Positions 2,106-49,070 of a stretch of DNA of 64,000 nucleotides are shown here, in pieces. Each line of letters opens with the position of its first letter. The first letter of the stretch is position 1. Location of the stretch: NCBI RefSeq assembly GCF_058153355.1, contig NZ_CM177019.1; one strand, 5' to 3'. The notes beneath the pieces are model-generated. The model saw nothing but the letters and a program-made list of their open reading frames with translations. It had not been told where the DNA came from and ran no database searches. Made by a program: the position numbers and the translations under genes.

Positions 2106-3647
2106 ATGCCTTATCTACTTGAAATGAAGAACATTACCAAAACCTTCGGCAGTGTGAAGGCAATTGATAACGTTAGCTTGCGGTTGAATGCCGGCGAAAT
2201 CGTCTCACTCTGCGGGGAAAATGGGTCTGGTAAATCAACGCTGATGAAAGTGCTGTGTGGTATTTATCCCCATGGCTCCTACGAAGGCGAAATTATTTTT
2301 GCGGGAGAAGAGATTCAGGCGAGTCACATCCGCGATACCGAACGCAAAGGTATCGCCATCATTCACCAGGAATTGGCCCTGGTGAAAGAATTGACCGTGC
2401 TGGAAAATATCTTCCTGGGTAACGAAATAACCCATAATGGCATTATGGATTATGATCTGATGACGCTACGCTGTCAGAAGCTGCTCGCACAGGTCAGTTT
2501 ATCCATTTCACCAGATACCCGCGTTGGCGATTTAGGGCTTGGGCAACAACAACTGGTTGAAATTGCCAAGGCACTTAATAAACAGGTGCGTTTGTTAATT
2601 CTCGATGAGCCGACAGCCTCATTAACTGAGCAGGAAACGTCGGTTTTACTGGATATTATTCGCGATCTACAACAGCACGGTATCGCCTGTATTTATATTT
2701 CGCACAAACTCAACGAAGTCAAAGCGATTTCCGATACGATTTGCGTTATTCGCGACGGTCAGCACATTGGTACGCGTGATGCTGCCGGAATGAGTGAAGA
2801 CGATATTATCACCATGATGGTCGGGCGAGAGTTAACCGCGCTTTACCCTAATGAACCACATACCACCGGAGATGAAATATTACGTATTGAACATCTGACG
2901 GCATGGCATCCGGTTAATCGTCATATTAAACGAGTTAATGATGTCTCGTTTTCCCTGAAACGTGGCGAAATACTGGGTATTGCCGGACTCGTTGGTGCCG
3001 GACGTACCGAGACCATTCAGTGCCTGTTTGGCGTGTGGCCCGGACAATGGGAAGGAAAAATTTATATTGATGGCAAACAGGTAGATATTCGTAACTGTCA
3101 GCAAGCCATCGCCCAGGGGATTGCGATGGTACCCGAAGACAGAAAGCGCGACGGCATCGTTCCGGTAATGGCGGTTGGTAAAAATATTACCCTCGCCGCA
3201 CTCAATAAATTTACCGGCGGTATTAGCCAGCTTGATGACGCGGCAGAGCAAAAATGTATTCTGGAATCAATCCAGCAACTCAAAGTTAAAACGTCGTCCC
3301 CCGACCTTGCTATTGGACGTTTGAGCGGCGGCAATCAGCAAAAAGCGATCCTCGCTCGCTGTCTGTTACTCAACCCGCGCATTCTCATTCTTGATGAACC
3401 TACCAGGGGTATCGATATTGGCGCGAAATACGAGATCTACAAATTAATTAACCAACTCGTCCAGCAGGGTATTGCCGTTATTGTCATCTCTTCCGAATTA
3501 CCTGAAGTGCTCGGCCTTAGCGATCGTGTACTGGTGATGCATGAAGGGAAACTAAAAGCCAACCTGATAAATCATAACCTGACTCAGGAGCAGGTGATGG
3601 AAGCCGCATTGAGGAGCGAACATCATGTCGAAAAGCAATCCGTCTGA
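2106..3647 (+). CDS. xylG: D-xylose ABC transporter ATP-binding protein (duplicated ABC domains)
   Basis: 513 aa from [14 protein letters not shown]; two Walker A motifs ([18 protein letters not shown]) and two LSGG signatures. Confidence 0.95.
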
Positions 3648-7314: not shown

Positions 7315-9345
7315 ATGAAACTCGCCGCCTGTTTTCTGACACTCCTTCCTGGCTTCGCCGTTGCCGCCAGCTGGACTTCTCCGGGGTTCCCTGCCTTTAG
7401 CGAACAGGGAACGGGAACATTTGTCAGCCACGCGCAGTTGCCCAAAGGTACGCGTCCACTAACGCTAAATTTTGACCAACAGTGCTGGCAGCCTGCGGAT
7501 GCGATAAAACTCAATCAGATGCTTTCCCTGCAACCTTGTAGCAACACGCCACCTCAATGGCGATTGTTCAGGGACGGCGAATATACGCTGCAACTAGACA
7601 CCCGCTCCGGTACACCAACATTGATGATTTCCATCCAGAACGCCGTCGAACCGGTAGCAAGCCTGGTCCGTGAATGCCCGAAATGGGATGGATTACCGCT
7701 CACACTGGATGTCAGCGCCACTTTTCCGGAGGGAGCCGCAGTCCGGGATTATTACAGCCAGCAAATTGCGATAGTGAAGAACGGTCAAATAACGTTACAA
7801 CCCGCTGCCACCAGCAACGGTTTACTCCTGCTGGAACGGGCAGAAACTGACACATCCGCCCCTTTCGACTGGCATAACGCCACGGTTTACTTTGTGCTGA
7901 CAGATCGTTTCGAAAACGGCGATCCCAGTAATGACCAGAGTTACGGACGCCATAAAGACGGTATGGCAGAAATTGGAACTTTTCACGGCGGCGATTTACG
8001 CGGCCTGACCAACAAACTGGATTACCTCCAGCAGCTGGGCGTCAATGCTTTATGGATAAGTGCCCCATTTGAGCAAATTCACGGCTGGGTCGGCGGCGGT
8101 ACAAAAGGCGATTTCCCGCATTATGCCTACCACGGTTATTACACACAGGACTGGACGAATCTTGATGCCAATATGGGCAGCGAAGCCGATCTCCGGACGC
8201 TGGTTGATAGCGCGCATCAGCGCGGTATTCGTATTCTCTTTGATGTCGTGATGAACCACACCGGCTATGCCACACTGGCGGATATGCAGGAGTATCAGTT
8301 TGGCGCGTTATACCTTTCTGGTGATGAGCTGAAAAAAACGTTAGGTGACCGCTGGAGCGACTGGAAGCCCGCCGCCGGGCAAACCTGGCATAGCTTTAAC
8401 GATTACATTAATTTCAGCGACAAAACAGGCTGGGATAAATGGTGGGGAAAAAACTGGATCAGAACGGATATCGGCGACTACGACAATCCTGGATTTGACG
8501 ATCTCACCATGTCGCTGGCCTTTTTACCGGATATCAAAACCGAATCAACTACCGCTTCTGGCCTGCCAGTGTTCTATAACAACAAAACGGATACCCACGC
8601 TAAAGCCATTGACGGCTTTACCCCTCGAGATTACTTAACCCATTGGTTAAGCCAGTGGGTCCGTGACTACGGAATTGATGGTTTTCGGGTCGATACCGCC
8701 AAGCATGTTGAGTTGCCCGCCTGGCAGCAACTGAAAACCGAAGCCAGCGCCGCACTTCGCGAATGGAAAAAAGCGAATCCCGATAAAGCGTTAGATGACA
8801 CACCGTTCTGGATGACCGGTGAAGCCTGGGGCCACGGCGTGATGCAAAGTGACTACTATCGCCACGGCTTCGATGCGATGATCAATTTCGATTATCAGGA
8901 GCAGGCGGCTAAAGCAGTCGATTGTCTGGCGCAGATGGATACGACCTGGCAGCAAATGGCAGAGAAATTGCAGGATTTCAACGTGTTGAGCTATCTTTCG
9001 TCGCATGATACCCGCCTGTTTCGTGAAGGGGGCGACAAAGCAGCAGAGTTATTGTTATTAGCGCCAGGCGCAGTACAAATCTTTTATGGTGATGAATCCT
9101 CTCGTCCGTTCGGTCCTACCGGTTCTGATCCGCTGCAAGGCACGCGTTCGGATATGAACTGGCAGGATGTTAACGGTAAATCTGCCGCTAGCGTCGCGCA
9201 CTGGCAGAAAATCAGCCAGTTCCGCGCCCGCCATCCCGCAATTGGCGCGGGCAAACAAACGACACTTTCGCTGAAGCAGGGCTACGGCTTTGTTCGTGAG
9301 CATGGCGACGATAAAGTGCTGGTCATCTGGGCTGGGCAACAGTGA
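7315..9345 (+). CDS. malS: Periplasmic alpha-amylase
   Basis: 676-aa ORF with signal peptide MKLAACFLTLLPGFAVAASW and GH13 motifs (GFRVDTAKH, EAWGHG, FYGDE). Confidence 0.95.
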   Translation: MKLAACFLTLLPGFAVAASWTSPGFPAFSEQGTGTFVSHAQLPKGTRPLTLNFDQQCWQPADAIKLNQMLSLQPCSNTPPQWRLFRDGEYTLQLDTRSGTPTLMISIQNAVEPVASLVRECPKWDGLPLTLDVSATFPEGAAVRDYYSQQIAIVKNGQITLQPAATSNGLLLLERAETDTSAPFDWHNATVYFVLTDRFENGDPSNDQSYGRHKDGMAEIGTFHGGDLRGLTNKLDYLQQLGVNALWISAPFEQIHGWVGGGTKGDFPHYAYHGYYTQDWTNLDANMGSEADLRTLVDSAHQRGIRILFDVVMNHTGYATLADMQEYQFGALYLSGDELKKTLGDRWSDWKPAAGQTWHSFNDYINFSDKTGWDKWWGKNWIRTDIGDYDNPGFDDLTMSLAFLPDIKTESTTASGLPVFYNNKTDTHAKAIDGFTPRDYLTHWLSQWVRDYGIDGFRVDTAKHVELPAWQQLKTEASAALREWKKANPDKALDDTPFWMTGEAWGHGVMQSDYYRHGFDAMINFDYQEQAAKAVDCLAQMDTTWQQMAEKLQDFNVLSYLSSHDTRLFREGGDKAAELLLLAPGAVQIFYGDESSRPFGPTGSDPLQGTRSDMNWQDVNGKSAASVAHWQKISQFRARHPAIGAGKQTTLSLKQGYGFVREHGDDKVLVIWAGQQ

Positions 9346-10802: not shown

Positions 10803-12029
<1,227 letters not shown>

Positions 12030-12059
12030 CATGCCTGCAATCTGGGAAACCGGGGTAGA

Positions 12060-12090
<31 letters not shown>

Positions 12091-12781: not shown

Positions 12782-13630
12782 TTATGTGATCGCGCCCTGG
12801 TCGTCCCTGACAGTAAATCCCAGTTCATTAGAAATAGCCTGCGCGGTTTCACGCAGTGGTTTCAGGAGATTTTTCTCCCCCACCTGTTTCAGACGTGATG
12901 TCGAAAGCGAAATCGACACGGCGTACGGCACCCGCCCATGAATATCAAACACCGGAACAGCAATACAGGAGACGCCGAGTTCGTTTTCTTCTCTGTCCAT
13001 CGCCGCTCCGCTTTCACGAATGTGCGCCAGTTCGTCGAACATCGCGGGCAGCTCGGTAATGGTATTGCGGGTTAACGGCTGGATCTCATGCTGATGGCTT
13101 TCCCAGTATGACTTCACGTAGTCCGGGTGACCAAACGCCATGTAGATCTTGCCCATTGCGGAACAGTAGAGCGGCATATGCTGGCCTATATAAGCTCGGG
13201 TTCGCAGCATCCCGGTCGTGGGTTCCAGCTTATAAATCAAAATAGCGTGATCGTCTTCGCGGCTGGAGAAGTTAATGGTTTCACCAGTGTCGATGTTCAG
13301 TGCCTCAAGATGCGGAGCGGCGATATGAATGATATTCAGCGAAGACAGCGCCTTCTGCCCGACGGCAATAAATTTGGTAGTCAGGCGGTAACTCCCTGCG
13401 GCGGGCGCGGTGGTCACATAGCCGCAGGATTGTAATCCCTGCAATAAGCGATGGACGGTACTCTTATTTAAACCAGCCAGCTCCGAAAGATGCGCCAACG
13501 GACAACCGTTTGGATAGTTGCTCAAAATCTCAATCAGCATCAACCCGCGAAACAGACTCTGGCTTCCGGCTGGACGCTCTTTTTCCTGCGCCATCTCGTT
13601 CTCTTTTTTTCCCATCACTTCTTTCCCCAT
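12782..13630 (-). CDS. yiaJ: IclR-family transcriptional repressor of the yiaK-sgbE operon
   Basis: 282 aa; IclR HTH (LSELAGLNKSTVHRLL) and effector domain; divergent from yiaK. Confidence 0.9.
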   Translation of the reverse strand: MGKEVMGKKENEMAQEKERPAGSQSLFRGLMLIEILSNYPNGCPLAHLSELAGLNKSTVHRLLQGLQSCGYVTTAPAAGSYRLTTKFIAVGQKALSSLNIIHIAAPHLEALNIDTGETINFSSREDDHAILIYKLEPTTGMLRTRAYIGQHMPLYCSAMGKIYMAFGHPDYVKSYWESHQHEIQPLTRNTITELPAMFDELAHIRESGAAMDREENELGVSCIAVPVFDIHGRVPYAVSISLSTSRLKQVGEKNLLKPLRETAQAISNELGFTVRDDQGAIT

Positions 13631-14838: not shown

Positions 14839-15309
<471 letters not shown>

Positions 15310-15426: not shown

Positions 15427-15901
15427 ATGAAAAAAAATACTTGAAGCAATACTGGCGATTAATCTCGCCGTACTTTCCTGTATTGTGTTTATAAACATTA
15501 TTTTAAGATATGGTTTTCAGACAAGTATTTTATCTGTAGATGAATTGTCGCGTTATTTATTTGTCTGGTTAACCTTTATTGGCGCGATTGTGGCTTTTAT
15601 GGATAACGCCCACGTTCAGGTTACCTTTCTGGTGGAGAAACTCTCCCCCGCGTGGCAGCGACGAGTCGCTCTGGTTACCCACGCCTTAATATTATTTATT
15701 TGTGGCGCACTGGCCTGGGGCGCAACGCTAAAAACAATTCAGGACTGGAGCGATTATTCACCGATCCTCGGCTTGCCCATCGGCCTGATGTATGCCGCTT
15801 GTCTGCCCACCAGCCTCGTTATCGCATTCTTTGAGCTGCGCCTTTTATATCAACTCATCACGCGTAGCAATTCTCTAACGCCGCCACCGCAAGGAGCTTA
15901 A
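15427..15901 (+). pseudogene. yiaM: TRAP transporter small permease YiaM with +1 frameshift in an A8 homopolymer at codons 2-4
   Basis: ATG at 15427 is followed by 8 A's; the reading frame hits TGA after 4 codons. The conserved frame resumes as the 138-aa ORF from GTG 15485 ([12 protein letters not shown]...); total length matches a 157-aa YiaM if one A is removed. Confidence 0.7.
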
Positions 15902-19680: not shown

Positions 19681-20339
19681 GCAGACCACTTCTGCAACTG
19701 GCCCTCGACCACTCATCACTTGAAGCCGCACAGCGCGACGTTACGCTGTTAAAAGACAGCGTCGATATCGTCGAAGCAGGCACTATTCTCTGTTTAAACG
19801 AAGGGCTTGGCGCGGTGAAAGCCTTGCGCGAACAGTGCCCGGACAAAATCATCGTTGCTGACTGGAAGGTCGCCGATGCTGGTGAAACGCTCGCGCAACA
19901 GGCGTTTGGCGCAGGCGCTAACTGGATGACCATCATCTGCGCCGCACCGCTCGCGACGGTGGAAAAAGGCCACGCGATGGCGCAACGCTGCGGTGGTGAA
20001 ATCCAGATAGAGCTTTTTGGTAACTGGACGCTGGACGACGCCCGCGACTGGCATCGTATTGGCGTGCGGCAGGCGATTTATCATCGTGGTCGTGACGCGC
20101 AGGCCAGCGGGCAACAGTGGGGCGAAGCCGATCTGGCACGCATGAAGGCGCTTTCCGATATCGGCCTTGAGCTTTCCATTACCGGCGGGATTACGCCTGC
20201 TGACCTGCCGCTGTTTAAAGATATCCGCGTGAAAGCGTTTATTGCCGGGCGGGCGCTGGCAGGCGCAGCAAATCCGGCACAGGTAGCTGCCGACTTCCAT
20301 GCGCAAATCGACGCTATCTGGGGAGGCGCGCGTGCGTAA
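19677..20339 (+). CDS. sgbH: 3-keto-L-gulonate-6-phosphate decarboxylase
   Basis: 220 aa, OMP-decarboxylase-like; overlaps lyxK stop. Confidence 0.9.
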
Positions 20340-21192
20340 TCATCCGTTAGGGATTTATGAAAAAGCGCTGGCGAAAGATCTCTCCTGGCCGGAGCGGCTG
20401 GTGCTGGCAAAAAGCTGCGGTTTTGATTTTGTCGAAATGTCGGTGGATGAAACCGACGAGCGTCTGTCGCGCCTTGACTGGAGCGCCGCACAAAGGACTT
20501 CGCTGGTTGCCGCGATGATCGAAACGGGTGTTGGGATCCCGTCGATGTGCCTGTCCGCACATCGTCGTTTTCCCTTTGGTAGCCGTGACGACGCGGCACG
20601 CCAGCGAGCACGGGAGATCATGAGTAAAGCAATTCGTCTGGCGCGCGATCTCGGTATTCGCACCATTCAACTGGCGGGCTACGACGTCTATTACGAAGCC
20701 CATGACGAAGGCACGCAGCAACGTTTTGCCGAAGGGCTGGCGTGGGCGGTTGAACAGGCAGCCGCCGCGCAGGTGATGCTGGCGGTGGAGATTATGGATA
20801 CTGCGTTTATGAACTCCATCAGCAAATGGAAAAAATGGGACGAGATACTCGCTTCGCCGTGGTTCACCGTCTACCCGGACGTCGGCAACCTTAGCGCCTG
20901 GGGCAATGATGTTCCCGCTGAACTGAAACTGGGCATTGACCGTATCGCCGCCATCCACCTGAAAGATACCCAGCCAGTGACCGAGCATAGCCCCGGACAG
21001 TTCCGCGACGTGCCGTTTGGCGAAGGCTGCGTCGATTTCGTTGGTATCTTCAAAACGCTGCATGAACTGAACTATCGCGGATCATTTCTGATTGAGATGT
21101 GGACCGAAAAAGCCAAAGAGCCGGTGCTGGAGATTATTCAGGCGCGGCGCTGGATTGAAGCGCGTATGCAGGAGGCCGGATTTATATGTTAG
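20332..21192 (+). CDS. sgbU: L-xylulose-5-phosphate 3-epimerase
   Basis: 286 aa from GTG ([15 protein letters not shown]...), TIM-barrel sugar-phosphate epimerase; the ORF-track start at 20299 is an extension. Confidence 0.85.
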
Positions 21193-21680
21193 AGCGATTG
21201 AAAGCCGACGTGCTGGCGGCGAATCTGGCGCTTTATCGTCGCTATGCAGAAATTGGCGGTATTGTGCATACCCACTCGCGCCACGCCACCATCTGGTCAC
21301 AGGCCGGGCTGGATCTCCCCGCCTGGGGCACCACGCACGCCGATTATTTCTATGGTGCCATCCCCTGCACGCGACAGATGACCGCAGAGGAGATTAACGG
21401 CGAATATGAATATCAGACCGGCGAAGTGATCATTGAAACTTTCGAAGAACGCGGCAGGAGTCCGGCACAAATCCCGGCGGTATTGGTGCATTCTCACGGT
21501 CCGTTCGCCTGGGGCAATAACGCCGCCGATGCGGTGCATAATGCCGTGGTACTCGAAGAGTGCGCCTATATGGGCCTGTTCTCGCGCCAGCTTGCGCCGC
21601 AGCTTCCTGCGATGCAAAACGAACTTCTGGATAAGCATTACCTGCGTAAGCATGGGGCCAATGCCTATTACGGGCAGTAA
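21186..21680 (+). CDS. sgbE: L-ribulose-5-phosphate 4-epimerase with an in-frame internal deletion of ~67 codons (164 aa instead of ~231); probably non-functional
   Basis: N-terminus [16 protein letters not shown] joins directly to [21 protein letters not shown]..., omitting the block present in AraD-family epimerases (AraD: ...[21 protein letters not shown]...PTHRLLYQAF...); C-terminal two-thirds is intact. Confidence 0.75.
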
Positions 21681-21688
21681 TCTATCAC

Positions 21689-21710
21689 GCCGGGGCTTCA
21701 TTGCCCCGGC
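21689..21710. terminator. Putative bidirectional terminator hairpin between convergent sgbE and the AraC-family gene
   Basis: gccggggc-ttcatt-gccccggc stem-loop located between two convergent stop codons. Confidence 0.45.
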
Positions 21711-21711
21711 A

Positions 21712-22527
21712 CTACGAATTGATATGTTCCTTGCTGTAACGTCGCTTCCACGCAGCTGGCGTTAAACCGGTGTGTTTGCGAAAAATCTGTCGGAAATAGC
21801 CAACGTCATTAAACCCGCACAACGCCGCCACTTCCGTGAGCGATCGCGCTTCGCTAATTAACAGCTTTTCGGCTTCGCGCACTCGCTGGCGGTGGATTGC
21901 TTCTGTTAACGTCAGATGAAACACCCGCCGATAGACACGCCCAAGATAATCGGCATTGCAGTACAGCTCGCGGGCTAAAAGCGCCGTAGAAAGCGGGCGA
22001 TGATATTGCGTGCGGATCAGTTTCTGCGCTTTCCAGGCAAGCGTGGTACCTGCGGCATCGGCCTGTTCATCAAGACGCGCGTCACGGGTGAGTTGCTGCA
22101 AAATCAGCAGCACAATAAACTCCAGCGCCGGAGTGCGTTGATGCTTTTCCTGTTCGCTTAAGAACTGGCGAAACAGGGCCACCAGCGCCTGCGGATCGGC
22201 AACCTTCGTTTGTTGCGGCACGCTAAGATGAGTGAGCCAGCGCGGGTCGCTATCCGGCGCTTTAACCTCAAAATGCAGCCAGTAAAATTTGAGATCGGCG
22301 GGAAAATCCTCTACCCCAACATGCTGTCGGTTCGGCCAGAGTAATAAACTCTCTCCCGCATCGACCAGAAATATCCGCTCTTCTTCCTGAATCGTTAATC
22401 GACCTTTTTCGACAAAGATAATTTCCCATGACTCCAGCCGCCTTGCCGGATGCCTCCCTACGCCACGGGAAATAAATAATCCACCATTTTGCACTTTAAT
22501 CGGTAACGTCATGGATAATTCGAGCAT
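21712..22527 (-). CDS. AraC/XylS-family transcriptional regulator (cupin N-domain + HTH)
   Basis: 271 aa; C-terminal AraC HTH signature (...LTEVAALCGFNDVGYFRQIFRKHTGLTPAAWKRR); divergent from the MFS transporter gene. Confidence 0.8.
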   Translation of the reverse strand: MLELSMTLPIKVQNGGLFISRGVGRHPARRLESWEIIFVEKGRLTIQEEERIFLVDAGESLLLWPNRQHVGVEDFPADLKFYWLHFEVKAPDSDPRWLTHLSVPQQTKVADPQALVALFRQFLSEQEKHQRTPALEFIVLLILQQLTRDARLDEQADAAGTTLAWKAQKLIRTQYHRPLSTALLARELYCNADYLGRVYRRVFHLTLTEAIHRQRVREAEKLLISEARSLTEVAALCGFNDVGYFRQIFRKHTGLTPAAWKRRYSKEHINS

Positions 22528-24163: not shown

Positions 24164-26134
24164 ATGAACATTTCGGAAGTCGATCTGCATAAACTGACGG
24201 TCAGCGATCCGTTCCTCGGTCAGTACCAACAACTGGTCCGCGACGTGGTGATTCCTTATCAGTGGGATGCCTTGAACGATCGTATCCCAGAAGCGGAACC
24301 CAGCCATGCGATTGAAAACTTTCGCATTGCCGCAGGACTGCAAGACGGTGAATTTTACGGGATGGTGTTTCAGGACAGCGACGTCGCCAAATGGCTGGAA
24401 GCGGTAGCCTGGTCGCTGTGCCAGAAGCCGGATGCCGAACTGGAAAAAACTGCTGACGAGGTAATCGAACTGGTCGCTTCCGCCCAGTGCGAAGATGGCT
24501 ATCTCAATACTTACTTTACGGTAAAAGCGCCCGAAGAACGCTGGAGCAATCTGGCGGAGTGTCATGAACTTTACTGCGCCGGTCATCTGATTGAAGCCGG
24601 AGTCGCCTTCTTCCAGGCCACGGGCAAGCGGCGCTTGCTGGAAGTGGTTTGCCGTCTGGCCGATCATATCGACAGCGTATTTGGTCCAGGTGAAAGTAAG
24701 TTACACGGTTATCCTGGTCATCCGGAAATTGAACTGGCACTGATGCGCCTGTATGAAGTGACCGAAGAGCCGCGCTACCTGGCGCTGACGAACTATTTTG
24801 TCGAACAGCGTGGTGCGCAACCGCACTATTACGACTAGGAATATGAAAAGCGCGGGCAGACCTCGCACTGGCACACCTACGGCCCGGCGTGGATGGTGAA
24901 AGACAAAGCCTACAGCCAGGCACATTTGCCCATCGCACAGCAGCAAACCGCCATTGGTCACGCGGTACGTTTTGTCTACCTGATGACCGGCGTCGCGCAT
25001 CTCGCGCGTTTAAGTCACGATGAAAGCAAGCGTCAGGACTGCCTGCGGCTGTGGAACAATATGGCCCAGCGTCAGTTATATATTACCGGCGGCATTGGCT
25101 CACAAAGCAGCGGCGAAGCGTTCAGCAGCGATTACGATCTGCCGAATGACACGGTATACGCCGAAAGCTGTGCTTCCATCGGCCTGATGATGTTCGCCCG
25201 GCGAATGCTGGAAATGGAAGGCGACAGTCACTATGCCGATGTGATGGAGCGCGCACTGTACAACACCGTGCTCGGCGGCATGGCGCTGGATGGCAAACAT
25301 TTCTTCTATGTGAATCCGCTGGAAGTACATCCAAAATCGCTGAAATTCAACCATATCTACGATCACGTTAAGCCGATCCGCCAGCGTTGGTTTGGTTGCG
25401 CTTGTTGTCCGCCAAATATCGCCCGCGTGCTAACCTCGATTGGTCATTATCTCTACACGCCGCGTGAAGATGCGTTGTATATCAACATCTACGCAGGAAA
25501 CAGCATGGAAGTGCCGGTAGAAAATGGCACGCTGCGTCTGCGGGTTAGCGGAAACTATCCGTGGCAGGAACAGGTGACAATTGCGGTTGAATCGCCCCAG
25601 CCGGTGCGTCATACGCTGGCTTTACGTCTGCCGGACTGGTGCACACAGCCGCAGATTACATTGAATGGGGAAGAGGTCGAGCAGGATATTCGTAAAGGGT
25701 ATTTGCACATTACCCGCGAATGGCAGGAGGGCGACACGCTGAATCTGACTTTGCCAATGCCGGTACGTCGCGTTTACGGTAACCCGCTGGTGCGTCACGT
25801 CGCCGGAAAAGTGGCGATTCAGCGCGGCCCGCTGGTGTATTGCCTGGAACAGGCCGACAACGGCGAGTCACTGCATAACCTGTGGCTGCCCGCCGATGCG
25901 CCATTTACGACATTTGAAGGTAATGGATTGTTCCGCCATAAGATCTTAATCCAGGCACCGGGTTACCGGTATGAACAGAGCAATCCAGAGCAGCAACCGC
26001 TGTGGCATTACGACAGCGCGCCAGCCAAACGCCAGCCGCAAACTCTGACATTTATCCCGTGGTTTAGCTGGGCTAACCGGGGTGAAGGCGAAATGCGGAT
26101 CTGGGTGAATGAGGAAAACCAGTGCCATCCGTAG
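24164..26134 (+). pseudogene. Glycoside hydrolase family 127-like (beta-L-arabinofuranosidase / DUF1680) gene interrupted by one in-frame TAG at 24836-24838
   Basis: The ORFs 24116-24838 and 24893-26134 are in the same frame and separated only by an amber codon (…AQPHYYD*EYEKRGQTSHWHTYGPAWMVKDKA…); combined length ~656 aa is typical of GH127; RBS AAGGAG 7 nt before the ATG at 24164. Confidence 0.65.
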
Positions 26135-30947: not shown

Positions 30948-32485
30948 TCAGAACAGCCCCAACGGTTTATCTGAGTAGCTCACCAGCAGGCACTTGGTTT
31001 GCTGATAATGCTCAAGCATCATCTTATGGGTTTCGCGCCCAATACCCGACTGCTTATAGCCACCAAACGCCGCATGTGTCGGGTAAGCGTGATAACAGTT
31101 GGTCCACACTCGCCCGGCCTGAATGCCGCGCCCCATCTTATAGGCCAGATTACCGTTGCGGCTCCAGACACCAGCCCCCAGACCATATTGCGTGTCGTTC
31201 GCCAGCTCCAGCGCTTCTTCCATCGTTTTGAAGGTGGTTACCGCCAGCACCGGACCAAAAATTTCTTCCTGGAACACGCGCATATTATTCTGACCAAACA
31301 GAATCGTCGGTTCGAGGTAGTAGCCGTCTTTCAGTTCGCCTTCCAGCAGCTTGCGCCGCCCACCGGTGAGCACGTCTGCGCCCTCTTTTTTACCGATATC
31401 AATGTAGTTGAGGATGGTTTCCAGTTGCCCGTGCGAAACTTGCGCCCCCATTTGCGTCACGCTATCGAGCGGGTTACCGCTGCGAATGCTTTCGACACGG
31501 CGGATGGCGCGTTCCATAAAGCGTTCGTAGATAGACTCCTGCACTAAAGCACGGCTTGGACAGGTGCAAACTTCGCCCTGGTTAAAGGCAAACAGTGCAA
31601 AGCCTTCCAGCGCTTTATCGAAAAAGGCATCTTCTTCATCCATCACATCAGCAAAGAAGATATTGGCGACTTGCCGCCCAGCTCCAGGGTTACCGGAATA
31701 ATATTTTGCGTGGCGTACTGCATAATTTGTTGGCCCACTTCCGTTGAGCCGGTAAACGCCACTTTAGCGATGCGTTTCGAGGTCGCCAGATATTCGCCAA
31801 TTTCCCCACCAGCACCGTTGACCACGTTCACCACGCCCGGCGGCAGTAAATCACCGACGATTTCCATTAGCAGCAGTACAGAAAGCGGGGTAAGACGTGC
31901 GGGTTTCAGCACCACACAGTTGCCCGCCGCCAGCGCGGGAGCCATTTTCCAGCTCGCCATCAGCAGCGGGAAGTTCCACGGAATAATCTGCCCCACCACG
32001 CCTAACGGTTCGTGGAAGTGATAAGCCACAGTTTCGCTATCAACTTCACTGATCCCACCTTCCTGCGCCCGAATACACGAGGCGAAATAGCGGAAGTGGT
32101 CAATCGCCAGCGGTACATCAGCAGCACTGGTTTCGCGAATGGGTTTGCCGTTATCCCAGGTTTCAGCCGTCGCTAAAAGTTCGAGGTTTTGCTCCATTCG
32201 ATCGGCAATCTTAAACAGAATCGCCGCGCGATCCTGCACCGAAGTATGCGCCCATTTATCTTTCACTTTATGCGCAGCATCCAGCGCCAGATCGATATCT
32301 CGTTTACCCGAAGACGCCACTTCGCACAGTAGCTGCCCGGTCACCGGCGTCAGGTTCTGGTAATACTCGCCGTCGGCGGGCGCGACCCATTCGCCGCCAA
32401 TAAAGTTGTCATAGCGGGCTTTTAACTTGAGGGGGAAGCCATACTCGCCGGGCTTAATCTGTGCTGAAGGGGGATTGTTGGTCAT
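30948..32485 (-). pseudogene. aldB: Aldehyde dehydrogenase B with a 1-bp deletion (frameshift) near codon ~279
   Basis: N-fragment ([20 protein letters not shown]… to …LELGGKSP) and C-fragment (…[16 protein letters not shown]… to …DKPLGLF) are both ALDH sequence in different frames; junction reads ggcaagtcgccaatatcttc, where a further A (ccaaatatc) would restore …[16 protein letters not shown]…. Confidence 0.8.
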
Positions 32486-37965: not shown

Positions 37966-38180
37966 GCCGAGTCCTTTGTGCGAGGAAAAATATCAGTATG
38001 GCCTGGTGATGGGAAAAAGGGCAGAAAATGTTGATGGTTTGTTACTTCCCAATAAATCACATATTTATCATGGTGATATAAATATTTTCCTAATTGTTCT
38101 TATCTGACAGATATCTCACTTAAGGCTTTCTTATAAATCTGTAGGGTTTGCACCATGAGTGCGGTAGCTATGAGGTTTAT

Positions 38181-40493
38181 ATGTCCTCAGAAGGATTACG
38201 TTTCACGCTGTCGGTGGCCGGTATCGTGGAGATGGCGACGGCGGTGGTGAGCTTCCGTCTGTACCAGCACCACTGCACGCCGTTCATCCTGGATGTGGAT
38301 ATCGCCAGCGGGCTGCCCGACCTGACGGCGGAGGATTTTCTGGAGAAGAGCGCGGTGCTGACGGTCTGGCAGGGTGATATCCCGCAGCGTTACGTCAGCG
38401 GTATCGTGACGGAGGTGCAGCTCGGTGAGAACAACGACTGGCAGATGCGTTATTCCCTGAGCATCAGCCCGCCGCTGTGGCGGGCAGGGTTACGGCAGAA
38501 CTTCCGTATCTTCCAGCAGCAGGACATTCAGACGATATCAGCACAGCTTCTGAGAGAGAACGGGGTGACGGCGTGGATGCCGCTGTTCTATGAGGCGCAC
38601 CCGGCGCGGGAGTTCTGCGTGCAGTACGGGGAGAGCGACCTGGCATTCCTGACCCGGCTGTGGGCGGAGGAAGGTATCTTCTTTTATGAGCGCTGCGGTC
38701 AGGAAGGGCCGGAGCAGAAGCTGGCGGTGTGTGATGACGTGGCGGGGCTGACGGGAATGGGGGCGCTGGCGTTTAACCCGAATACCACGACCGGGGGAAC
38801 GACGGAGTACATCAGTGAGTTTCGTTACCGTGCGCAGATAAGCGTGGCGTCGGTGGAGACGCAGGATTATACGTTCAAAACGCCGGGGTGGCCGGGGTAC
38901 TACAGCCATGACGGGGAGAGCCTGAACGGGCAGGGAACGCAGTACGAGATATTTGATTATCCGGGGCGTTTCAAGGATGAGCAGCATGGCCAGGATTTTG
39001 CGCGTTACCAGACGGAAGGGTGGCGGAACGGGGCGGAGACGGCGAGCGGGGTGTGTAACACGGCGCGGCTGTGGCCGGGAACGCGGTTCCGGCTGACGGG
39101 CCATCCCTCAGAGACGCTGAACCGGGAATGGCAGGTTGTGGGAAGCACACTGCGGGGAGAACAGCCGCAGGCGCTGCACGGGAGTCACGGTGAAGGGACG
39201 ACACTGAGCAATCAGTTTGAGGTGATACCGGCAGACAGGACGTGGCGTCACGCGCCGCTGCCGAAGCCGAAGGTGGACGGCCCGCAGAGTGCCATCGTGA
39301 CCGGGCCGAAGGGTGAGGAGATATTCTGCGACGAGCATGGCCGGGTACGGGTGAAGTTTCACTGGGACCGTTATCACGGGATGACGGAGGAGAGTTCGTG
39401 CTGGATACGGGTGTCGCAGGCATGGGCGGGACCGGGGTTCGGCAATCTGGCGATACCGCGTGTGGGTCAGGAAGTGATAGTGGACTTTCTGAACGGCGAC
39501 CCGGACCAGCCCATTGTGACGGGGCGGACCTACCATGAAGATAACCGTTCACCGGGGGATTTACCGGGCACGCGGACGCAGATGACCATCCGCTCGAAGA
39601 CCTATAAAGGAAGCGGCTTTAATGAACTGCGTTTCGAGGATGCGACGGACAGTGAGCAGGTGTATATCCACGCGCAGAAGAACATGGACACGGAGGTGCT
39701 TAACGACCGGACGACGGACGTGAAGCATGACCATACGGAGACCATCGGTAACGACCAGAAGATAAGGGTGGTGAAGGGGCAGACGGTTGAGGTCGGCACC
39801 AGAAAAGAAGGGGGTCACGACCAGAGTATCACGGTGGCGAACGACCGGCGCATAACGGTACGTAATGACCAGACGCTGAAGGTGACGAATGACCGGACGG
39901 TGAGCGTGAGTCACGATGACGGCCTGTATGTCAGAAACGACCGTAAAGTGACGGTGGAAGGGAAGCAGGAGCATAAGACGACGGGGAACCATATCAGCCT
40001 GGTGGAGGGAAAGCACAGTCTGGAGGTGAAGGGCGACCTGGCGGAGAAGGTGAGTGGCGCGCTGGGGATCAAGGTGGACGGGGATATCGTGCTGGAGAGC
40101 AGCAGCCGGATAAGCCTGAAAGTGGGCGGCTCGTTCGTGGTGATACACTCTGGCGGTGTGGATATTGCGGGGCCGAAGATAAACCTCAACGGGGGAGGCA
40201 GTCCGGGGACGCCAGTACAGACGTTACAACCGGTGGTACTGGAGGCGCTGGAGGATGAGAATGATGATGAGAACCCTGAAAAATATACTCTCCAGTTCCA
40301 TTTTACAGACGATGACGGGATACCGTATTCAGAGACACGCTACATTGCCTTCTTTGAGGACGGCACGCAGACGCGAGGGGAGACGGATGAAAATGGGTAT
40401 ACGGAAACATTCTCCACTGACAGCGAGCAGACAATCGAAGTCAGATTGTTGCATTTGAATATCGATATGATATGGGGAGGGATTAATGAATAG
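38181..40493 (+). CDS. vgrG: Type VI secretion spike protein VgrG (copy 1) with ~80-aa C-terminal extension (possible transthyretin-like adaptor domain)
   Basis: 770 aa from MSSEGLRFTLSVAGIVE…; gp27-like N-domain, gp5-like OB/beta-helix region with repeated VxVxV-type strands (…ITVANDRRITVRNDQTLKVTNDRTVSVSHDD…), then …VVIHSGGVDIAGPKINLNGGGSPG and an extension …YTLQFHFTDDDGIPYSETRYIAFFEDGTQTRGETDENGYTETF…. No YD repeats, so not Rhs. Confidence 0.9.
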   Translation: MSSEGLRFTLSVAGIVEMATAVVSFRLYQHHCTPFILDVDIASGLPDLTAEDFLEKSAVLTVWQGDIPQRYVSGIVTEVQLGENNDWQMRYSLSISPPLWRAGLRQNFRIFQQQDIQTISAQLLRENGVTAWMPLFYEAHPAREFCVQYGESDLAFLTRLWAEEGIFFYERCGQEGPEQKLAVCDDVAGLTGMGALAFNPNTTTGGTTEYISEFRYRAQISVASVETQDYTFKTPGWPGYYSHDGESLNGQGTQYEIFDYPGRFKDEQHGQDFARYQTEGWRNGAETASGVCNTARLWPGTRFRLTGHPSETLNREWQVVGSTLRGEQPQALHGSHGEGTTLSNQFEVIPADRTWRHAPLPKPKVDGPQSAIVTGPKGEEIFCDEHGRVRVKFHWDRYHGMTEESSCWIRVSQAWAGPGFGNLAIPRVGQEVIVDFLNGDPDQPIVTGRTYHEDNRSPGDLPGTRTQMTIRSKTYKGSGFNELRFEDATDSEQVYIHAQKNMDTEVLNDRTTDVKHDHTETIGNDQKIRVVKGQTVEVGTRKEGGHDQSITVANDRRITVRNDQTLKVTNDRTVSVSHDDGLYVRNDRKVTVEGKQEHKTTGNHISLVEGKHSLEVKGDLAEKVSGALGIKVDGDIVLESSSRISLKVGGSFVVIHSGGVDIAGPKINLNGGGSPGTPVQTLQPVVLEALEDENDDENPEKYTLQFHFTDDDGIPYSETRYIAFFEDGTQTRGETDENGYTETFSTDSEQTIEVRLLHLNIDMIWGGINE
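39163..40040. repeat. Near-identical ~0.9-kb vgrG 3'-core repeat, copy 1 of 3
   Basis: Sequence and six-frame antisense ORFs are identical to 43497-44374 and 49075-49900 (e.g. ORF 39602-39799 = 43935-44132 = 49459-49656). Confidence 0.85.
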
Positions 40494-40576
40494 AGAGTGA
40501 CCGCCTGTAATTGGCGTGTTTTTGCATAAATGGAACAGGGTTTTGTAGTGAAAACATATTGCTAAGGAGGATTTAT

Positions 40577-41422
40577 ATGGGAGATGGAAAGGGTAGTACG
40601 AGCGGAAAAAGCCAGAGCGGTGAACAGTGTGTAGTTTTAAAGGAGGGAAAAATTACTAATGATTTTAAAATAATGATGAGAGAGGCTCTGAAGGCGCTGA
40701 TGGCTGTATTGAAGAAAAGAGTAGAAGATCTTGGTGATAAATGGGGAGAGGAACAAAATCAGGAGTTTATAAATATATTTGGTATTGATGGAAATACTTA
40801 TATTAAATTAGAGTTCCCTTTCGGGGGGCGTAAGGTTATGTTTCCAGAGAATATAAAGGCAAGGGATTATATGAGAAATGGCGTTACTCGCCTGTATGAG
40901 ATATGTGGGGAATTATCTGTGGAAGGTGATTGTGTAGACGTTACTATTCATGACCATTTCCTCAAACGTGATGCCAATTGTAATCTTGTTCTTAATGACA
41001 AAGGGGGTAATGAATATGTTGACAAAGACGTAATCAGGCCCAAAACCGGTAACTTTGTGAATTGTACAGATAATGACGCTTATGCTGCCAATGTAACTTA
41101 CGATCAGATTTTGGGTGTAAAACCTGGAGGCTTTAAAAGTTTGGTAAGTATAACTATAGGACAAAGATTTATAGATAGGCCACCCACTGGGAAAAACTCT
41201 AAGGCATCGACACTCTGCCATGAACTATCTCACTTTATAAGGTACGGGGATTCATTTAAGTTTGGAGGCATGTGGACGGAAGATATGCCGGTAGATATAG
41301 AGTATAATACAGGTGACGAATATATTGTTCATGCCACTAAATTAAAAAATGATAAAAAATCAGAACTATTTCAGAATGCATATAATATCGAACGTTATTT
41401 CGAGATTCATGTACCATATTGA
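40577..41422 (+). CDS. Putative T6SS effector, HExxH zincin-like metallopeptidase candidate
   Basis: 281 aa from ATG 40577 (RBS aaggagg upstream); AT-rich; HELSH motif at 41219-41233 followed by …GGMWTEDMPVDIEYNTGDEY…; no signal peptide; directly downstream of vgrG-1. Confidence 0.55.
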   Translation: MGDGKGSTSGKSQSGEQCVVLKEGKITNDFKIMMREALKALMAVLKKRVEDLGDKWGEEQNQEFINIFGIDGNTYIKLEFPFGGRKVMFPENIKARDYMRNGVTRLYEICGELSVEGDCVDVTIHDHFLKRDANCNLVLNDKGGNEYVDKDVIRPKTGNFVNCTDNDAYAANVTYDQILGVKPGGFKSLVSITIGQRFIDRPPTGKNSKASTLCHELSHFIRYGDSFKFGGMWTEDMPVDIEYNTGDEYIVHATKLKNDKKSELFQNAYNIERYFEIHVPY

Positions 41423-41446
41423 TGCTTTTATTTGACGGGGGAGTAT

Positions 41447-42355
41447 ATGCTTGCTAGATGGATTGTTTTTATTGTTTTTTTTGCGCATCCAATATTTGCT
41501 TATGATATCTCTGGCGATTATGCTGTTCATTACAGATATGGGAAGTTATATTGGAATGGAGTAATGGACAAACTTGGTGTCTATCCTCGTGTAGAGCCGA
41601 CAAGGCTTAATTATTATGATTATTATGATGATCTTTCAGCCTATGCTGTTTTTCAATATTATACTATCAGTAAAAATGAGAGTCAGTATAATCAAGATAA
41701 AAATAAAATATATCTTCATCTTTCCGTGCATCAGAAAGAAAATATTGTAGCAGCTGCAGTGGTTTTATCGAATAAAAGCCAGGGATCTTATTTTGTTCAT
41801 CGACTAACTCTTCCTCTTGACGTTAACGGCGGGCCTTACTCTTCCTTGTGTAGTGGTGTGTTTATACCGATAATGGATAACATTCAGTTGGATTTTTTAA
41901 AAAAAACAAAATGTAGCTTTGGTGAATGGAAAAATAAATCCGTTTGGCACGAGATATTAACAGGGAAAGAGCTATCCTTTGATGTCATATTGAACGATTA
42001 TTATGCCTTTTTACCGGGCATTCATCGTTATAATATAGGAACGGTAGAATTTACAATAGTTAATCAAGAGTGGTTTACAGAACAATGTATATATGAGTAT
42101 TTTCTTTCTATTATGAACTGGCGGGCAGAAAGTGAGTGTACTAATCCTATAGATAAAATAAGATATGGTATAGAGGAGTGGCGGGTTTGGAGAATTTGTG
42201 GACCTTATCGTGGGTCAGGTCTATTTCAGGATTTTTTAGCACGCTTTGGCTATCATGGCGGTAATGATAATATATTCAAAATAAGATCAAATCAGGTTGT
42301 GGTTACTATTGATGGGGATAGGGCATCTCCTCCTTATTCGTTGAGGAATTATTAA
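41447..42355 (+). CDS. Putative cognate immunity protein (secreted/periplasmic) for the HExxH effector
   Basis: ~303 aa with N-terminal signal peptide MLARWIVFIVFFAHPIFA; AT-rich; starts 24 bp after the effector stop; no recognisable family. Confidence 0.45.
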   Translation: MLARWIVFIVFFAHPIFAYDISGDYAVHYRYGKLYWNGVMDKLGVYPRVEPTRLNYYDYYDDLSAYAVFQYYTISKNESQYNQDKNKIYLHLSVHQKENIVAAAVVLSNKSQGSYFVHRLTLPLDVNGGPYSSLCSGVFIPIMDNIQLDFLKKTKCSFGEWKNKSVWHEILTGKELSFDVILNDYYAFLPGIHRYNIGTVEFTIVNQEWFTEQCIYEYFLSIMNWRAESECTNPIDKIRYGIEEWRVWRICGPYRGSGLFQDFLARFGYHGGNDNIFKIRSNQVVVTIDGDRASPPYSLRNY

Positions 42356-42510
42356 TGTTAACTTATTGTCATGGCTACAATTCGTTGGTTTTCCTGTTGA
42401 GATGATAATATATATGAGAAAAACAGGCAATGAACCAGTGAGAGAATATCAGAAGATACGGTCAACATCGGTTAATTACTTTTTCCTGTAGCGATACCAG
42501 GGAGGTCATC

Positions 42511-44712
42511 ATGTCATTAAAAGGGCTGCGCTTTACGCTGACGGTGGACGGACTGGTGCCGGAGACGTTTGCGGTGGTGGATTTCCGCCTCACGCAGGCA
42601 TACTCATCGCCGTTCGTCCTGGATGTGGACGTTGCCAGCGACTCGTTCCGCCAGACGGCGGAGAAGCTGCTGGAGAAGGGGGCCGTACTGACCATCTGGC
42701 AGGGTGGCACGGCGCTGCGTTATGTGAGCGGTGTGGTGTCGGGGTTCGGCATGAAGGAGCACAACGGCTGGCAGATGCAGTACCACCTTCAGATACGTCC
42801 GCCCCTGTGGCGCAGCGGGCTGCGCCAGAACTACCGAATCTTCCAGCAGCAGGACATTCAGGCCATCTCCGCCACGCTGTTAAACGAGGACGGAGTGACG
42901 CAGTGGACGCCGCGCTTTTATGAGAGCCACCCGGCACGGGAGTTCTGCGTCCAGTACGGTGAAAGCGACATGGCGTTTCTGACCCGGCTGTGGGCGGGGG
43001 AAGGCATCTTCTTTTATGACAGATACGCTGACGACAGCCCGGAGCAGACGCTCACGCTGTGCGATGATGTGGCGGGCCTGCCGGTGTACGGGGAGATACC
43101 GTTTAACCCGAACACCCGTGAGGTGACGACGGCGTGCATCAGCCTGTTCCGCTACCAGGCGCAGGTGCGGCCCTCGCAGGTGCGTTCAAAAGACCACACG
43201 TTTAAGGTGCCGGACTGGCCGGGTATTTACATTGAGGATGCTGAAAACCTCAACGGGCAACTGAAGCAGTACAAAATCCTGGACTGGCCGGGGCGCTACA
43301 AGGACGAGCAGCATGGTCAGGACTTTACCCGCTACCGGCTGGAAGGGCTGCGTAACAGTGCTGAAACCGCCACAGGTATCAGTAACTCCCCGGCGCTGTG
43401 GCCGGGACGGCGGTTCACCTTGACGGGGCATCCGGTACAGGGAGCGAACCCGAACCGTGAGTGGCAGGTGGTGAGCAGCACGCTGACGGGGAGCCAGCCG
43501 CAGGCGCTGCACGGGAGTCACGGTGAAGGGACGACACTGAGCAATCAGTTTGAGGTGATACCGGCAGACAGGACGTGGCGTCACGCGCCGCTGCCGAAGC
43601 CGAAGGTGGACGGCCCGCAGAGTGCCATCGTGACCGGGCCGAAGGGTGAGGAGATATTCTGCGACGAGCATGGCCGGGTACGGGTGAAGTTTCACTGGGA
43701 CCGTTATCACGGGATGACGGAGGAGAGTTCGTGCTGGATACGGGTGTCGCAGGCATGGGCGGGACCGGGGTTCGGCAATCTGGCGATACCGCGTGTGGGT
43801 CAGGAAGTGATAGTGGACTTTCTGAACGGCGACCCGGACCAGCCCATTGTGACGGGGCGGACCTACCATGAAGATAACCGTTCACCGGGGGATTTACCGG
43901 GCACGCGGACGCAGATGACCATCCGCTCGAAGACCTATAAAGGAAGCGGCTTTAATGAACTGCGTTTCGAGGATGCGACGGACAGTGAGCAGGTGTATAT
44001 CCACGCGCAGAAGAACATGGACACGGAGGTGCTTAACGACCGGACGACGGACGTGAAGCATGACCATACGGAGACCATCGGTAACGACCAGAAGATAAGG
44101 GTGGTGAAGGGGCAGACGGTTGAGGTCGGCACCAGAAAAGAAGGGGGTCACGACCAGAGTATCACGGTGGCGAACGACCGGCGCATAACGGTACGTAATG
44201 ACCAGACGCTGAAGGTGACGAATGACCGGACGGTGAGCGTGAGTCACGATGACGGCCTGTATGTCAGAAACGACCGTAAAGTGACGGTGGAAGGGAAGCA
44301 GGAGCATAAGACGACGGGGAACCATATCAGCCTGGTGGAGGGAAAGCACAGTCTGGAGGTGAAGGGCGACCTGGCGAGGAAGATTACCGGTGCGCTGGGA
44401 ATGAAGGTCCGGAATGAAATCGTACTGGAGAGTGGCGGTAAAATCACCCTAAAGGTGGGTGGTTCGTTTGTGGTCATCCATTCAGGGGGCGTGGACATCG
44501 TCGGGCCGAAAATCAATCTCAATAGCGGCGGTAGTCCGGGAACGCCGGTGCCGACGCTACGACCGGCGGTTTTGAAAGCGCTGGCAGATTATGACAATGG
44601 CGGACCTGGAACTGAAGGGGCGGAGCCACCACGGAAAAGTGTACAGGAAGCCTTTGATCCTCCCCAGCAGGATAAGGTACCGCCACAACGGCCGGGAAGA
44701 TTCTCACGATAA
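42511..44712 (+). CDS. vgrG: Type VI secretion spike protein VgrG (copy 2)
   Basis: 733 aa from MSLKGLRFTLTVDGLVPETFAVVDF…; same architecture as copy 1; short Pro/Gln-rich C-terminal tail. Confidence 0.9.
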   Translation: MSLKGLRFTLTVDGLVPETFAVVDFRLTQAYSSPFVLDVDVASDSFRQTAEKLLEKGAVLTIWQGGTALRYVSGVVSGFGMKEHNGWQMQYHLQIRPPLWRSGLRQNYRIFQQQDIQAISATLLNEDGVTQWTPRFYESHPAREFCVQYGESDMAFLTRLWAGEGIFFYDRYADDSPEQTLTLCDDVAGLPVYGEIPFNPNTREVTTACISLFRYQAQVRPSQVRSKDHTFKVPDWPGIYIEDAENLNGQLKQYKILDWPGRYKDEQHGQDFTRYRLEGLRNSAETATGISNSPALWPGRRFTLTGHPVQGANPNREWQVVSSTLTGSQPQALHGSHGEGTTLSNQFEVIPADRTWRHAPLPKPKVDGPQSAIVTGPKGEEIFCDEHGRVRVKFHWDRYHGMTEESSCWIRVSQAWAGPGFGNLAIPRVGQEVIVDFLNGDPDQPIVTGRTYHEDNRSPGDLPGTRTQMTIRSKTYKGSGFNELRFEDATDSEQVYIHAQKNMDTEVLNDRTTDVKHDHTETIGNDQKIRVVKGQTVEVGTRKEGGHDQSITVANDRRITVRNDQTLKVTNDRTVSVSHDDGLYVRNDRKVTVEGKQEHKTTGNHISLVEGKHSLEVKGDLARKITGALGMKVRNEIVLESGGKITLKVGGSFVVIHSGGVDIVGPKINLNSGGSPGTPVPTLRPAVLKALADYDNGGPGTEGAEPPRKSVQEAFDPPQQDKVPPQRPGRFSR
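43497..44374. repeat. Near-identical ~0.9-kb vgrG 3'-core repeat, copy 2 of 3
   Basis: See copy 1. Confidence 0.85.
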
Positions 44713-44721
44713 GGACTGAAC

Positions 44722-47211: not shown

Positions 47212-47216
47212 TTGAT

Positions 47217-47627
47217 ATGAAAGTTAATTTATTGGTTTTACTGTTTTGTTTGGTGCCTTGTTGTTTATTGGCTAAACAACAAACAACGGTAGGCTGTTTT
47301 AGCGCTGGGAAAACAAATTTAAAGTTTGTTGAAATATCGTCTGGCGATATTTTTTTAGGTTATGTGATTTATGAGAAATCCTCAAAATTTATACCTCTTG
47401 CGTTTATAAATAAATTAGAAGTGACTTTCGATGACAGGCCTTCTGAATTTTCTTATGCATGGAGCGAGGTTGTAAATGGAAAAATTAATGGGTTGTATGT
47501 TGTTTCCACACAAGGTGCAAGATTTAATTTGTTTCATTATAAATCAATAAGTGGGAAAACAACTGAGTTTGAAGAAAATATTGAGGCATATAATGATGAT
47601 GGTACTGATTGCAAATGGACTGGATGA
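47217..47627 (+). CDS. Putative periplasmic immunity protein for the lysozyme-like effector
   Basis: 136 aa with N-terminal signal sequence MKVNLLVLLFCLVPCCLLA; begins 5 bp after the effector stop; AT-rich. Confidence 0.45.
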   Translation: MKVNLLVLLFCLVPCCLLAKQQTTVGCFSAGKTNLKFVEISSGDIFLGYVIYEKSSKFIPLAFINKLEVTFDDRPSEFSYAWSEVVNGKINGLYVVSTQGARFNLFHYKSISGKTTEFEENIEAYNDDGTDCKWTG

Positions 47628-47775
47628 CCATTGTGCAGTTTTTTATGAAATCGATGCTGTGTTATTAAAATAATAATGCGACTAGGTTGAATTTGTTTAT
47701 TATTAATTTAAATGTTTTATGATTTTAAGTTAGACATGAATAACTGACTGGAAAATTATTTTTGAGGGATATCGT

Positions 47776-49070
47776 ACAGGCAGGCAGGGAAAGATCACGT
47801 AACGCTGCTTTTTTGTACTATACAATTCGCATTTTATGTTTGAAAATTGAGATATTCCTCATTACCTGAAGCTGTTTTTTATTGCTTATACATGATCAAA
47901 TACTCCTTACATAATTAAGGAGAACAAAATGGTACTTAAAAAATTGATGGAACATATTTCTATTATCCCCGATTACAGACAAGCCTGGAAAGTGGAACAT
48001 AAATTATCGGATATTCTACTGTTGACTATTTGCGCCGTTATTTCGGGTGCAGAAGGCTGGGAAGATATAGAGGATTTTGGGGAAACACATCTCGATTTTT
48101 TGAAGCAATATGGTGATTTTGAAAATGGTATTCCTGTTCACGATACCATTGTCAGAGTTGTATCCTGTATCAGTCCTGCAAAATTTCACGAGTGCTTTAT
48201 TAACTGGATGCGTGACTGCCATTCTTCAGATGATAAAGGCGTCATTGCAATTGATGGAAAAACGCTCCGGCACTCTTATGACAAGAGTCGCCGCAGGGGA
48301 GCGATTCATGTCATTAGTGCGTTCTCAACAATGCACAGTCTGGTCATCGGACAGATCAAGACGGATGAGAAATCCAATGAGATTACAGCTATCCCAGAAC
48401 TTCTTAACATGCTGGATATTAAAGGAAAAATCATCACAACTGATGCGATGGGTTGCCAGAAAGATATTGCAGAGAAGATACAAAAACAGGGAGGTGATTA
48501 TTTATTCGCGGTAAAAGGAAACCAGGGGCGGCTAAATAAAGCCTTTGAGGAAAAATTTCCGCTGAAAGAATTAAATAATCCAGATCATGACAGTTAAGCG
48601 ATTAGTGAAAAGAGTCACGGCAGAGAAAAAATCCGTCTTCATATTGTTTGCGATGTCCCTGATGAACTTATTGATTTCACGTTTGAATGGAAAGGTCTGA
48701 AGAAATTATGCGTGGCAGTCTCCTTTCGGTTAATAATAGCAGAACAAAAGAAAGAGCCAGAAATGACGGTCAGATATTATATCAGTTCTGCTGATTTAAC
48801 CGCAGAGAAGTTCGCCACAGCAATCCGAAACCACTGGCACGTGGAGAATAAGCTGCACTGGCGTCTGGACGTGGTAATGAATGAAGACGACTGCAAAATA
48901 AGAAGAGGAAACGCCGCAGAATTATTTTCAGGGATACGGCACATCGCTATTAATATTTTAACGAATGATAAGGTATTCAAGGCAGGGTTAAGACGTAAGA
49001 TGCGAAAAGCAGCCATGGACAGAAACTATCTCGCGTCAGTCCTTGCGGGGAGCGGGCTTTCGTAATCTTG
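47776..49070 (+). mobile_element. ISAs1-family (H-repeat / ISEc1-like) element inserted into vgrG copy 3
   Basis: ~1.3 kb; contains the H-repeat transposase gene; left-end sequence (gtacaggcagggaaagatcac…) recurs at 51856 and ~53976; right end abuts vgrG sequence beginning mid-gene (…FEVIPADRTW…). Confidence 0.7.
47929..49065 (+). pseudogene. ISAs1-family transposase (H-repeat protein, YhhI-like) with an in-frame TAA at 48595-48597
   Basis: ORFs 47929-48597 and 48712-49065 are in the same frame and both match the H-repeat protein ([58 protein letters not shown]… and …[41 protein letters not shown]…); full span would encode 378 aa. Confidence 0.8.

Follow-up and report, generated by a model that had tools for sequence, protein, structure and literature searches.

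A clonally inherited 201-bp deletion between 11-bp direct repeats leaves a probable null allele of sgbE in Escherichia coli

The final gene of the yiaK-S operon, sgbE, has lost exactly 201 bp in frame (67 codons, 17–83 of 231) in an E. coli genome represented here by 64,000 nucleotides of contig NZ_CM177019.1 (RefSeq assembly GCF_058153355.1; the whole stretch is referred to as the window). We consider it very likely that this is a genuine null allele, generated by deletion between repeats and inherited clonally within a region under relaxed selection.

Results

The deletion and its repeat endpoints

We aligned the window with E. coli 2020CK-00188, the closest genome among the matches listed, which carries an intact 696-bp sgbE at 8387–9082 in a locus annotated as yiaJ, yiaK-L-M-N-O, lyxK, ulaD (sgbH), sgbU, and araD (sgbE). 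The alignment breaks into two collinear blocks, with a 14-bp overlap on the window side and a 201-bp gap between them in the reference, placing the bounds of the deletion at residues 17–83 with an ambiguity of ±11 bp. The peptide reads ...AANLAL/YRRYAEIGG... across the junction, and outside the deletion the gene differs from the nearest intact allele at five of 495 nucleotides. This near-identity, together with synteny with annotated E. coli records, identifies the ORF as the ortholog of sgbE. The original prediction of a 164-aa ORF that joins ANLAL to YRRYAEIGG through an in-frame internal loss of ∼200 bp was thus correct, and the alignment fixes its length. A megablast search of positions 20,800–22,000 against 5,426 complete E. 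coli genomes returned thousands of matches; among those listed, all that span sgbE align as two pieces, occupying ∼1,400 bp of the record for a 1,201-bp query. The start codon of the shortened gene overlaps the stop codon of sgbU (ATATGTTAG), so that translational coupling is preserved, and its 3′ end is followed by a hairpin-like sequence and then by a convergent AraC-family gene. The features of the locus are summarized in Table 1.

Table 1. Features of the sgbE locus and of the neighboring lesions (coordinates in the window)
Feature	Coordinates	Strand	Details
yiaJ (plaR)	12782-13630	-	IclR-family operon repressor, intact, 282 aa; function described in PMC6958661 and PMC6237786
[quoted passage not shown]
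yiaM lesion	15427-15444	+	A8 in place of the A7 of intact alleles, right after the ATG; from alignment with intact alleles
sgbU	20332-21192	+	L-xylulose/L-ribulose-5-phosphate 3-epimerase, intact, 286 aa; stop overlaps sgbE start
Truncated sgbE (yiaS)	21186-21680	+	164 aa, ATG start; residues 1-16 fused in frame to 84-231 of the 231-aa L-ribulose-5-phosphate 4-epimerase
Sole retained copy of ATCTGGCGCTT	21223-21233	+	deletion junction; crossover somewhere inside these 11 bases
GH127 glycoside hydrolase	24164-26134	+	in-frame TAG at 24836-24838; fragments of 224 aa and 413 aa, 656 aa when intact
aldB	30948-32485	-	1-bp deletion (TTT to TT near 31663), frameshift; two overlapping ORFs

The endpoints of the deletion coincide with a direct repeat. 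In all nine intact sgbE alleles that we compared, drawn from diverse backgrounds, the exact 11-bp core ATCTGGCGCTT is present twice, at gene nucleotides 38–48 and 239–249, which are 201 bp apart. With their upstream flanks, the two copies read CGAATCTGGCGCTT at nucleotides 35–48 (8421–8434 in 2020CK-00188) and CGCATCTGGCGCTT at nucleotides 236–249 (8622–8635). The window retains a single CGAATCTGGCGCTT at 21,220–21,233, directly followed by TATCGTCGC, and the upstream flank at the junction, CGA, is of the left-copy type. Two parental copies, one of them kept, and a loss equal to the repeat spacing are what marks a deletion between short direct repeats by slippage or template switching, in agreement with the atctggcgctt-like repeats suggested beforehand. 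Microhomology of 11 bp at a random deletion junction has a probability of ∼4^-11 = 2.4e-7, so the coincidence of endpoint and repeat is not due to chance.

We propose that an ancestor of this E. coli clone lost the 201 bp between two 11-bp repeats located at codons 14–16 and 81–83 (-LAL-). Because both repeats lie in the same codon phase, the result is in frame by construction, and the open frame is not evidence of selection. Slipped-strand mispairing and template switching are familiar from the classic deletion hotspots of lacI. The likeliest route here would be slippage during replication, or a template switch, at closely spaced short repeats, without RecA and with one copy left behind; a repeat length of 11 bp and a spacing of 201 bp make this the most likely route when set against published work on E. 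coli, in which RecA-independent deletions between short direct repeats, dependent on their proximity, are described (PMC7145654, PMC5426353). The sgbE event shares the arrangement of such deletions, and its 201 bp are within their proximity range (PMC7145654). It differs from them in that its mechanism is read from the scar, there is no hairpin between the repeats, and three other repeat pairs of the same gene gave no deletion.

Hairpin-assisted slippage was considered and found to be unsupported, as the single-stranded DNA of the deleted interval folds no better than shuffled sequences (z = −1.0 and −0.2). In total, four pairs of direct repeats in intact sgbE share an exact core of 11 bp (spacings 186, 201, 248, and 450 bp), making the deleted pair one among several equally good substrates. 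For comparison, ∼0.06 pairs are expected by chance in 696 bp (four observed in the sgbE of 2020CK-00188), and some of the pairs mirror recurring peptide motifs (F-T/A-W-G-N, -LAL-).

Other lesions in the operon and its surroundings

When the window was compared with the reference gene by gene, ∼39 of ∼43 reference genes proved to be full length and four to be broken. The four inactivating mutations fall within ∼17 kb: a +1 frameshift in yiaM, the 201-bp deletion in sgbE, a nonsense mutation in the GH127 gene, and a −1 frameshift in aldB. All are common to the members of the clone, within the range that each locus covers. Relatives that carry the exact SgbU allele of the window have an intact 231-aa SgbE and a 157-aa YiaM and, where the genes are present, a 656-aa GH127 and a 512-aa AldB. 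The GH127 enzyme (beta-L-arabinofuranosidase-like) belongs to an accessory module composed of an AraC regulator, an MFS gene, and GH127.

The frameshifted yiaM, the gene of a transporter subunit, is translated as ATG AAA AAA AAT ACT TGA (MKKNT, stop), and the remainder of the gene (to 15,901) is left without its ATG. The gene may be leaky, either via an ATA start (a 154-aa ORF in one annotation) or via slippage on the A8 run. Given the frameshift, uptake in the clone is probably already impaired, and the pathway is probably cut off at that step. Two paralogous L-ribulose-5-phosphate 4-epimerases, AraD and UlaF, are normally present in E. coli and catalyze the same reaction; their genes are outside the window. 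It had been suggested that the shortened sgbE would block the final step linking this pathway to the pentose phosphate pathway; the probable loss of the enzyme stands, and the idea of a block by this deletion alone is weakened, since the clone also has a frameshifted yiaM and E. coli normally has the two paralogs. The operon, yiaKLMNO-lyxK-sgbHUE, is repressed by YiaJ/PlaR and implicated in a catabolism of L-xylulose, 2,3-diketo-L-gulonate, and ascorbate that supplies the pentose phosphate pathway with D-xylulose-5-P (PMC6958661, PMC6237786).

The simplest reading of these lesions would be relaxed selection, with decay of an accessory carbohydrate-use region in the clone. Four lesions in ∼43 genes amount to a pseudogene load only modestly above typical, and sgbE is an ordinary pseudogene, specific to the clone, within a stretch of accessory-metabolism genes that is decaying locally. 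We also weighed the possibility that the loss was selected, which we regard as unlikely. Under this alternative, loss of sgbE would cause toxic L-ribulose-5-phosphate to be produced via LyxK, SgbH, and SgbU, and the yiaM frameshift would have been selected against uptake; or the operon as a whole would be costly in the niche of the clone. Two independent lesions in one operon, one in its first transporter gene and one in its last enzyme, speak in its favor, as does the intact YiaJ repressor, and accumulation of L-ribulose-5-phosphate is toxic in araD-deficient E. coli (PMC7269641, citing Englesberg 1962). On the other hand, YiaJ normally represses the operon tightly (PMC6958661, PMC6237786), so that flux, and with it toxicity, should be rare. 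Moreover, AraD and UlaF could detoxify the intermediate, and the neighboring, unrelated GH127 and aldB genes are broken too, which fits general relaxed selection.

A more specific version, which we find quite improbable, treats the two operon lesions as an epistatic pair: loss of the epimerase would have been toxic, and the potentially reversible frameshift in the A-run of the transporter gene would have been fixed as its suppressor. If true, the pair would show a pathway being dismantled in nature in an ordered way, driven by toxicity. Our search for a closer relative with an intact sgbE or a single lesion found none; the LyxK allele of the lineage was recovered only from deletion-bearing contigs, and the SgbU allele of the window, though widespread, was seen only in backgrounds further removed. 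Relaxed selection remains our preferred reading of the region.

Several further observations concern the region and its relatives. The exact 286-aa SgbU allele (window 20,332–21,189) was also found in genomes of 4.4–4.7 Mb (loci L012–L017), suggesting possible recombination across distant backgrounds. These loci are without the AraC/MFS/GH127 module, yiaT-W, and the Rhs region, with aldB directly 3′ of sgbE, and their sgbE differs from that of the window at 15–23 of 495 nucleotides. Within the operon, yiaL differs from the reference by substitutions and mutually compensating indels in a short patch (15,006–15,014) that leaves its 155-aa ORF intact; YiaL is only 94% identical to the reference and diverges more than its neighbors.

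Elsewhere in the window, a 1,278-bp IS110-family (IS621-like) element at 10,808–12,085 has a transposase ORF at 11,000–11,980 (+ strand) with the Pfam domains DEDD_Tnp_IS110 and Transposase_20. Its insertion site, a REP-like palindrome, lies between avtA and ysaA; unoccupied in the reference, this site reads ...TATCAGGCCT/ACATCATT..., and CT is found at both element junctions. Rhs-type repeated cores occupy 38,100–54,500, with three copies of at least 300 nt at 98%–100% identity (39,219, 43,552, and 49,076) and variable tips between yibF and yibH, in an arrangement unlike that of the reference strain.

Consequence for the protein

The deletion removes a conserved part of a single-domain enzyme. 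Residues 14–164 of the window product align with residues 81–231 of E. coli AraD, a structurally characterized paralog (1JDI and 1K0W, 231 aa; E = 4e-79), and its first 16 residues align separately with AraD 1–18. The numbering of the two proteins is collinear, and the roles of AraD residues can therefore be transferred. As had been noted from the comparison with AraD, an entire block is skipped: AraD region 17–83, with Asp76 and the phosphate-binding residues, has no counterpart in the window product. As originally proposed, the block is part of the class II aldolase fold. The match to Pfam Aldolase_II (PF00596, 183 positions) shrinks from profile positions 2–181 in the intact protein to 75–181 in the window product, which does not contain a complete domain.

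Three curated NCBIfam models gave the same picture. The truncated product scored 339.7 bits against NF009002 (intact 510.1, cut-off 386), 284.9 bits against TIGR00760 (intact 442.4, cut-off 389.1), and 253.9 bits against NF006047 (intact 390.8, cut-off 257), matching profile positions 78–231 only. It thus falls under all three cut-offs, which the intact allele passes. Working E. coli SgbE (YiaS) has the same position 3′ of sgbU, the same overlapping start, and the same best NCBIfam model, NF009002; compared with it, the window allele is without codons 17–83, scores below the family cut-offs, and is a pseudogene.

We next consider which residues are affected, using an alignment of 21 homologs at 85%–99% identity. 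The 67 lost columns are kept in 21 out of 21 homologs and are mostly at least 90% conserved. Seven residues present in every homolog (N28, K42, S44, G45, S74, S75, and D76) all fall inside the deleted columns; the first six are reportedly the phosphate-binding residues of AraD, an assignment attributed to Samuel et al. and Luo et al., both in 2001. A search for open papers on the roles of Asn28 and Lys42 found none. Five other invariant columns, H95, H97, H171, D120, and Y229, are kept in the window protein as H28, H30, H104, D53, and Y162. They comprise the C-terminal metal ligands of the epimerase (the three histidines) and catalytic residues, and with these five residues retained the product may have residual metal binding. 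Asp76, Asp120, and Tyr229 have been discussed in the context of the AraD active site (PMC5434028).

An AF2 model of the intact protein, confident over residues 1–95 only and used solely for N-terminal secondary structure, places strands 27–32, 38–41, 57–60, and 66–68 and helix 77–86 in the deleted block. A comparison of the folds of the intact and deleted models was rejected: mean pLDDT was 56.5 and 41.7, respectively, from a shallow alignment (85%–99% identity), with no residue of the deleted protein above 70, values too poor to show misfolding.

Missing four β-strands of the central sheet, most of helix 77–86, the phosphate-binding residues, and Asp76, the 164-aa product should be unable to adopt the fold of a class II aldolase-type subunit or to epimerize L-ribulose-5-P to D-xylulose-5-P. 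Judging by its scores under every NCBIfam epimerase cut-off and by the conserved residues it has lost, the product is almost certainly inactive, in line with the original expectation, and it is probably unfolded. That the shortened protein is functional, whether as a compact epimerase, with a new activity, or as a dominant-negative partner in AraD/UlaF tetramers, strikes us as very improbable. Retention of the reading frame, of the coupled start at sgbU, and of Asp120, Tyr229, and the three His ligands would be compatible with function, and one NCBI record annotates a normal CDS; a second annotation of this locus has no gene there. Against function, the in-frame outcome is set by repeat phase, and ∼29% of a single-domain fold is gone, including four core strands and all reported phosphate-binding residues. 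The product is under every curated family cut-off, and this form was not found in the other lineages, genomes, and metagenomes searched.

Distribution of the junction

We found the identical junction in four other public assemblies (GCA_015332025.1, GCA_043012465.1, SRR31441161, and SRR8656992). The exact 164-aa protein is recorded by NCBI as EGO8354242.1, "L-ribulose-5-phosphate 4-epimerase [Escherichia coli]", and contigs of GCA_015332025.1, SRR31441161, and SRR8656992 encode it; GCA_043012465.1 was found via the lineage-specific LyxK allele, and its DNA carries the junction. The four loci differ from the window by zero, two, three, and four SNPs over 14–19.6 kb, with zero indels. Together with the window they make up a single clone in which SNPs distinguish at least three genotypes, assembled through differing pipelines (NCBI submissions and Logan). 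GCA_015332025.1 and SRR8656992 have their SNPs in common and possibly derive from one isolate, and the window itself may come from SRR31441161. A literature search for the accessions of the isolates found no paper naming them.

An assembly or sequencing artifact, in which the 201 bp are present in the genome and collapsed in the assembly (a possibility raised in the original prediction, the missing segment being flanked by a direct repeat), is hardly credible and effectively excluded, given that assembler k-mers far exceed an 11-bp repeat and that the same junction was reproduced in the four other assemblies, which come from different pipelines and add at least two genotypes.

Outside the clone, the junction appears to be rare. 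A 70-bp junction-spanning query had no match in the 5,426 complete E. coli genomes at an E-value limit of 1e-18, which half-matches from intact genes (38 or 43 bp at most) cannot pass. An exact search found no junction in GTDB representatives, which hold one genome per species and are uninformative on strains, and a degenerate search found none in JGI metagenome contigs. Among complete genomes that hold sgbE, 4,822 of 4,836 cover at least 80% of the gene and only 14 cover less, indicating that large sgbE lesions are rare. The best identity of the whole window to the complete RefSeq E. coli genomes was ∼98%–98.7% over 24 kb; identity is mosaic, at 98.2% to the left of sgbE and 99.4% to the right, with no close relative among the complete genomes there.

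A different sgbE pseudogene allele is found in many other samples. It has a 1-bp deletion that splits the gene into ORFs of 60 aa and 176 aa, and it is unrelated to the window allele, from which it differs both in the lesion and in the genetic background, suggesting that loss of sgbE recurs in E. coli. The public collection lists this 695-bp gene (2837–3531 at loci L007–L010) in 96 blocks.

Discussion

The sgbE deletion is of little importance beyond annotation. The ORF merits a pseudogene flag, and one NCBI record currently names it as a working L-ribulose-5-phosphate 4-epimerase. It is also a clean natural example of a deletion between 11-bp repeats, and its junction, absent from 5,426 complete genomes, could act as a clone-specific marker. 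As for the biology of the clone, we predict that its members would be unable to use the YiaK-S route (2,3-diketo-L-gulonate, L-xylulose, and aerobic ascorbate).
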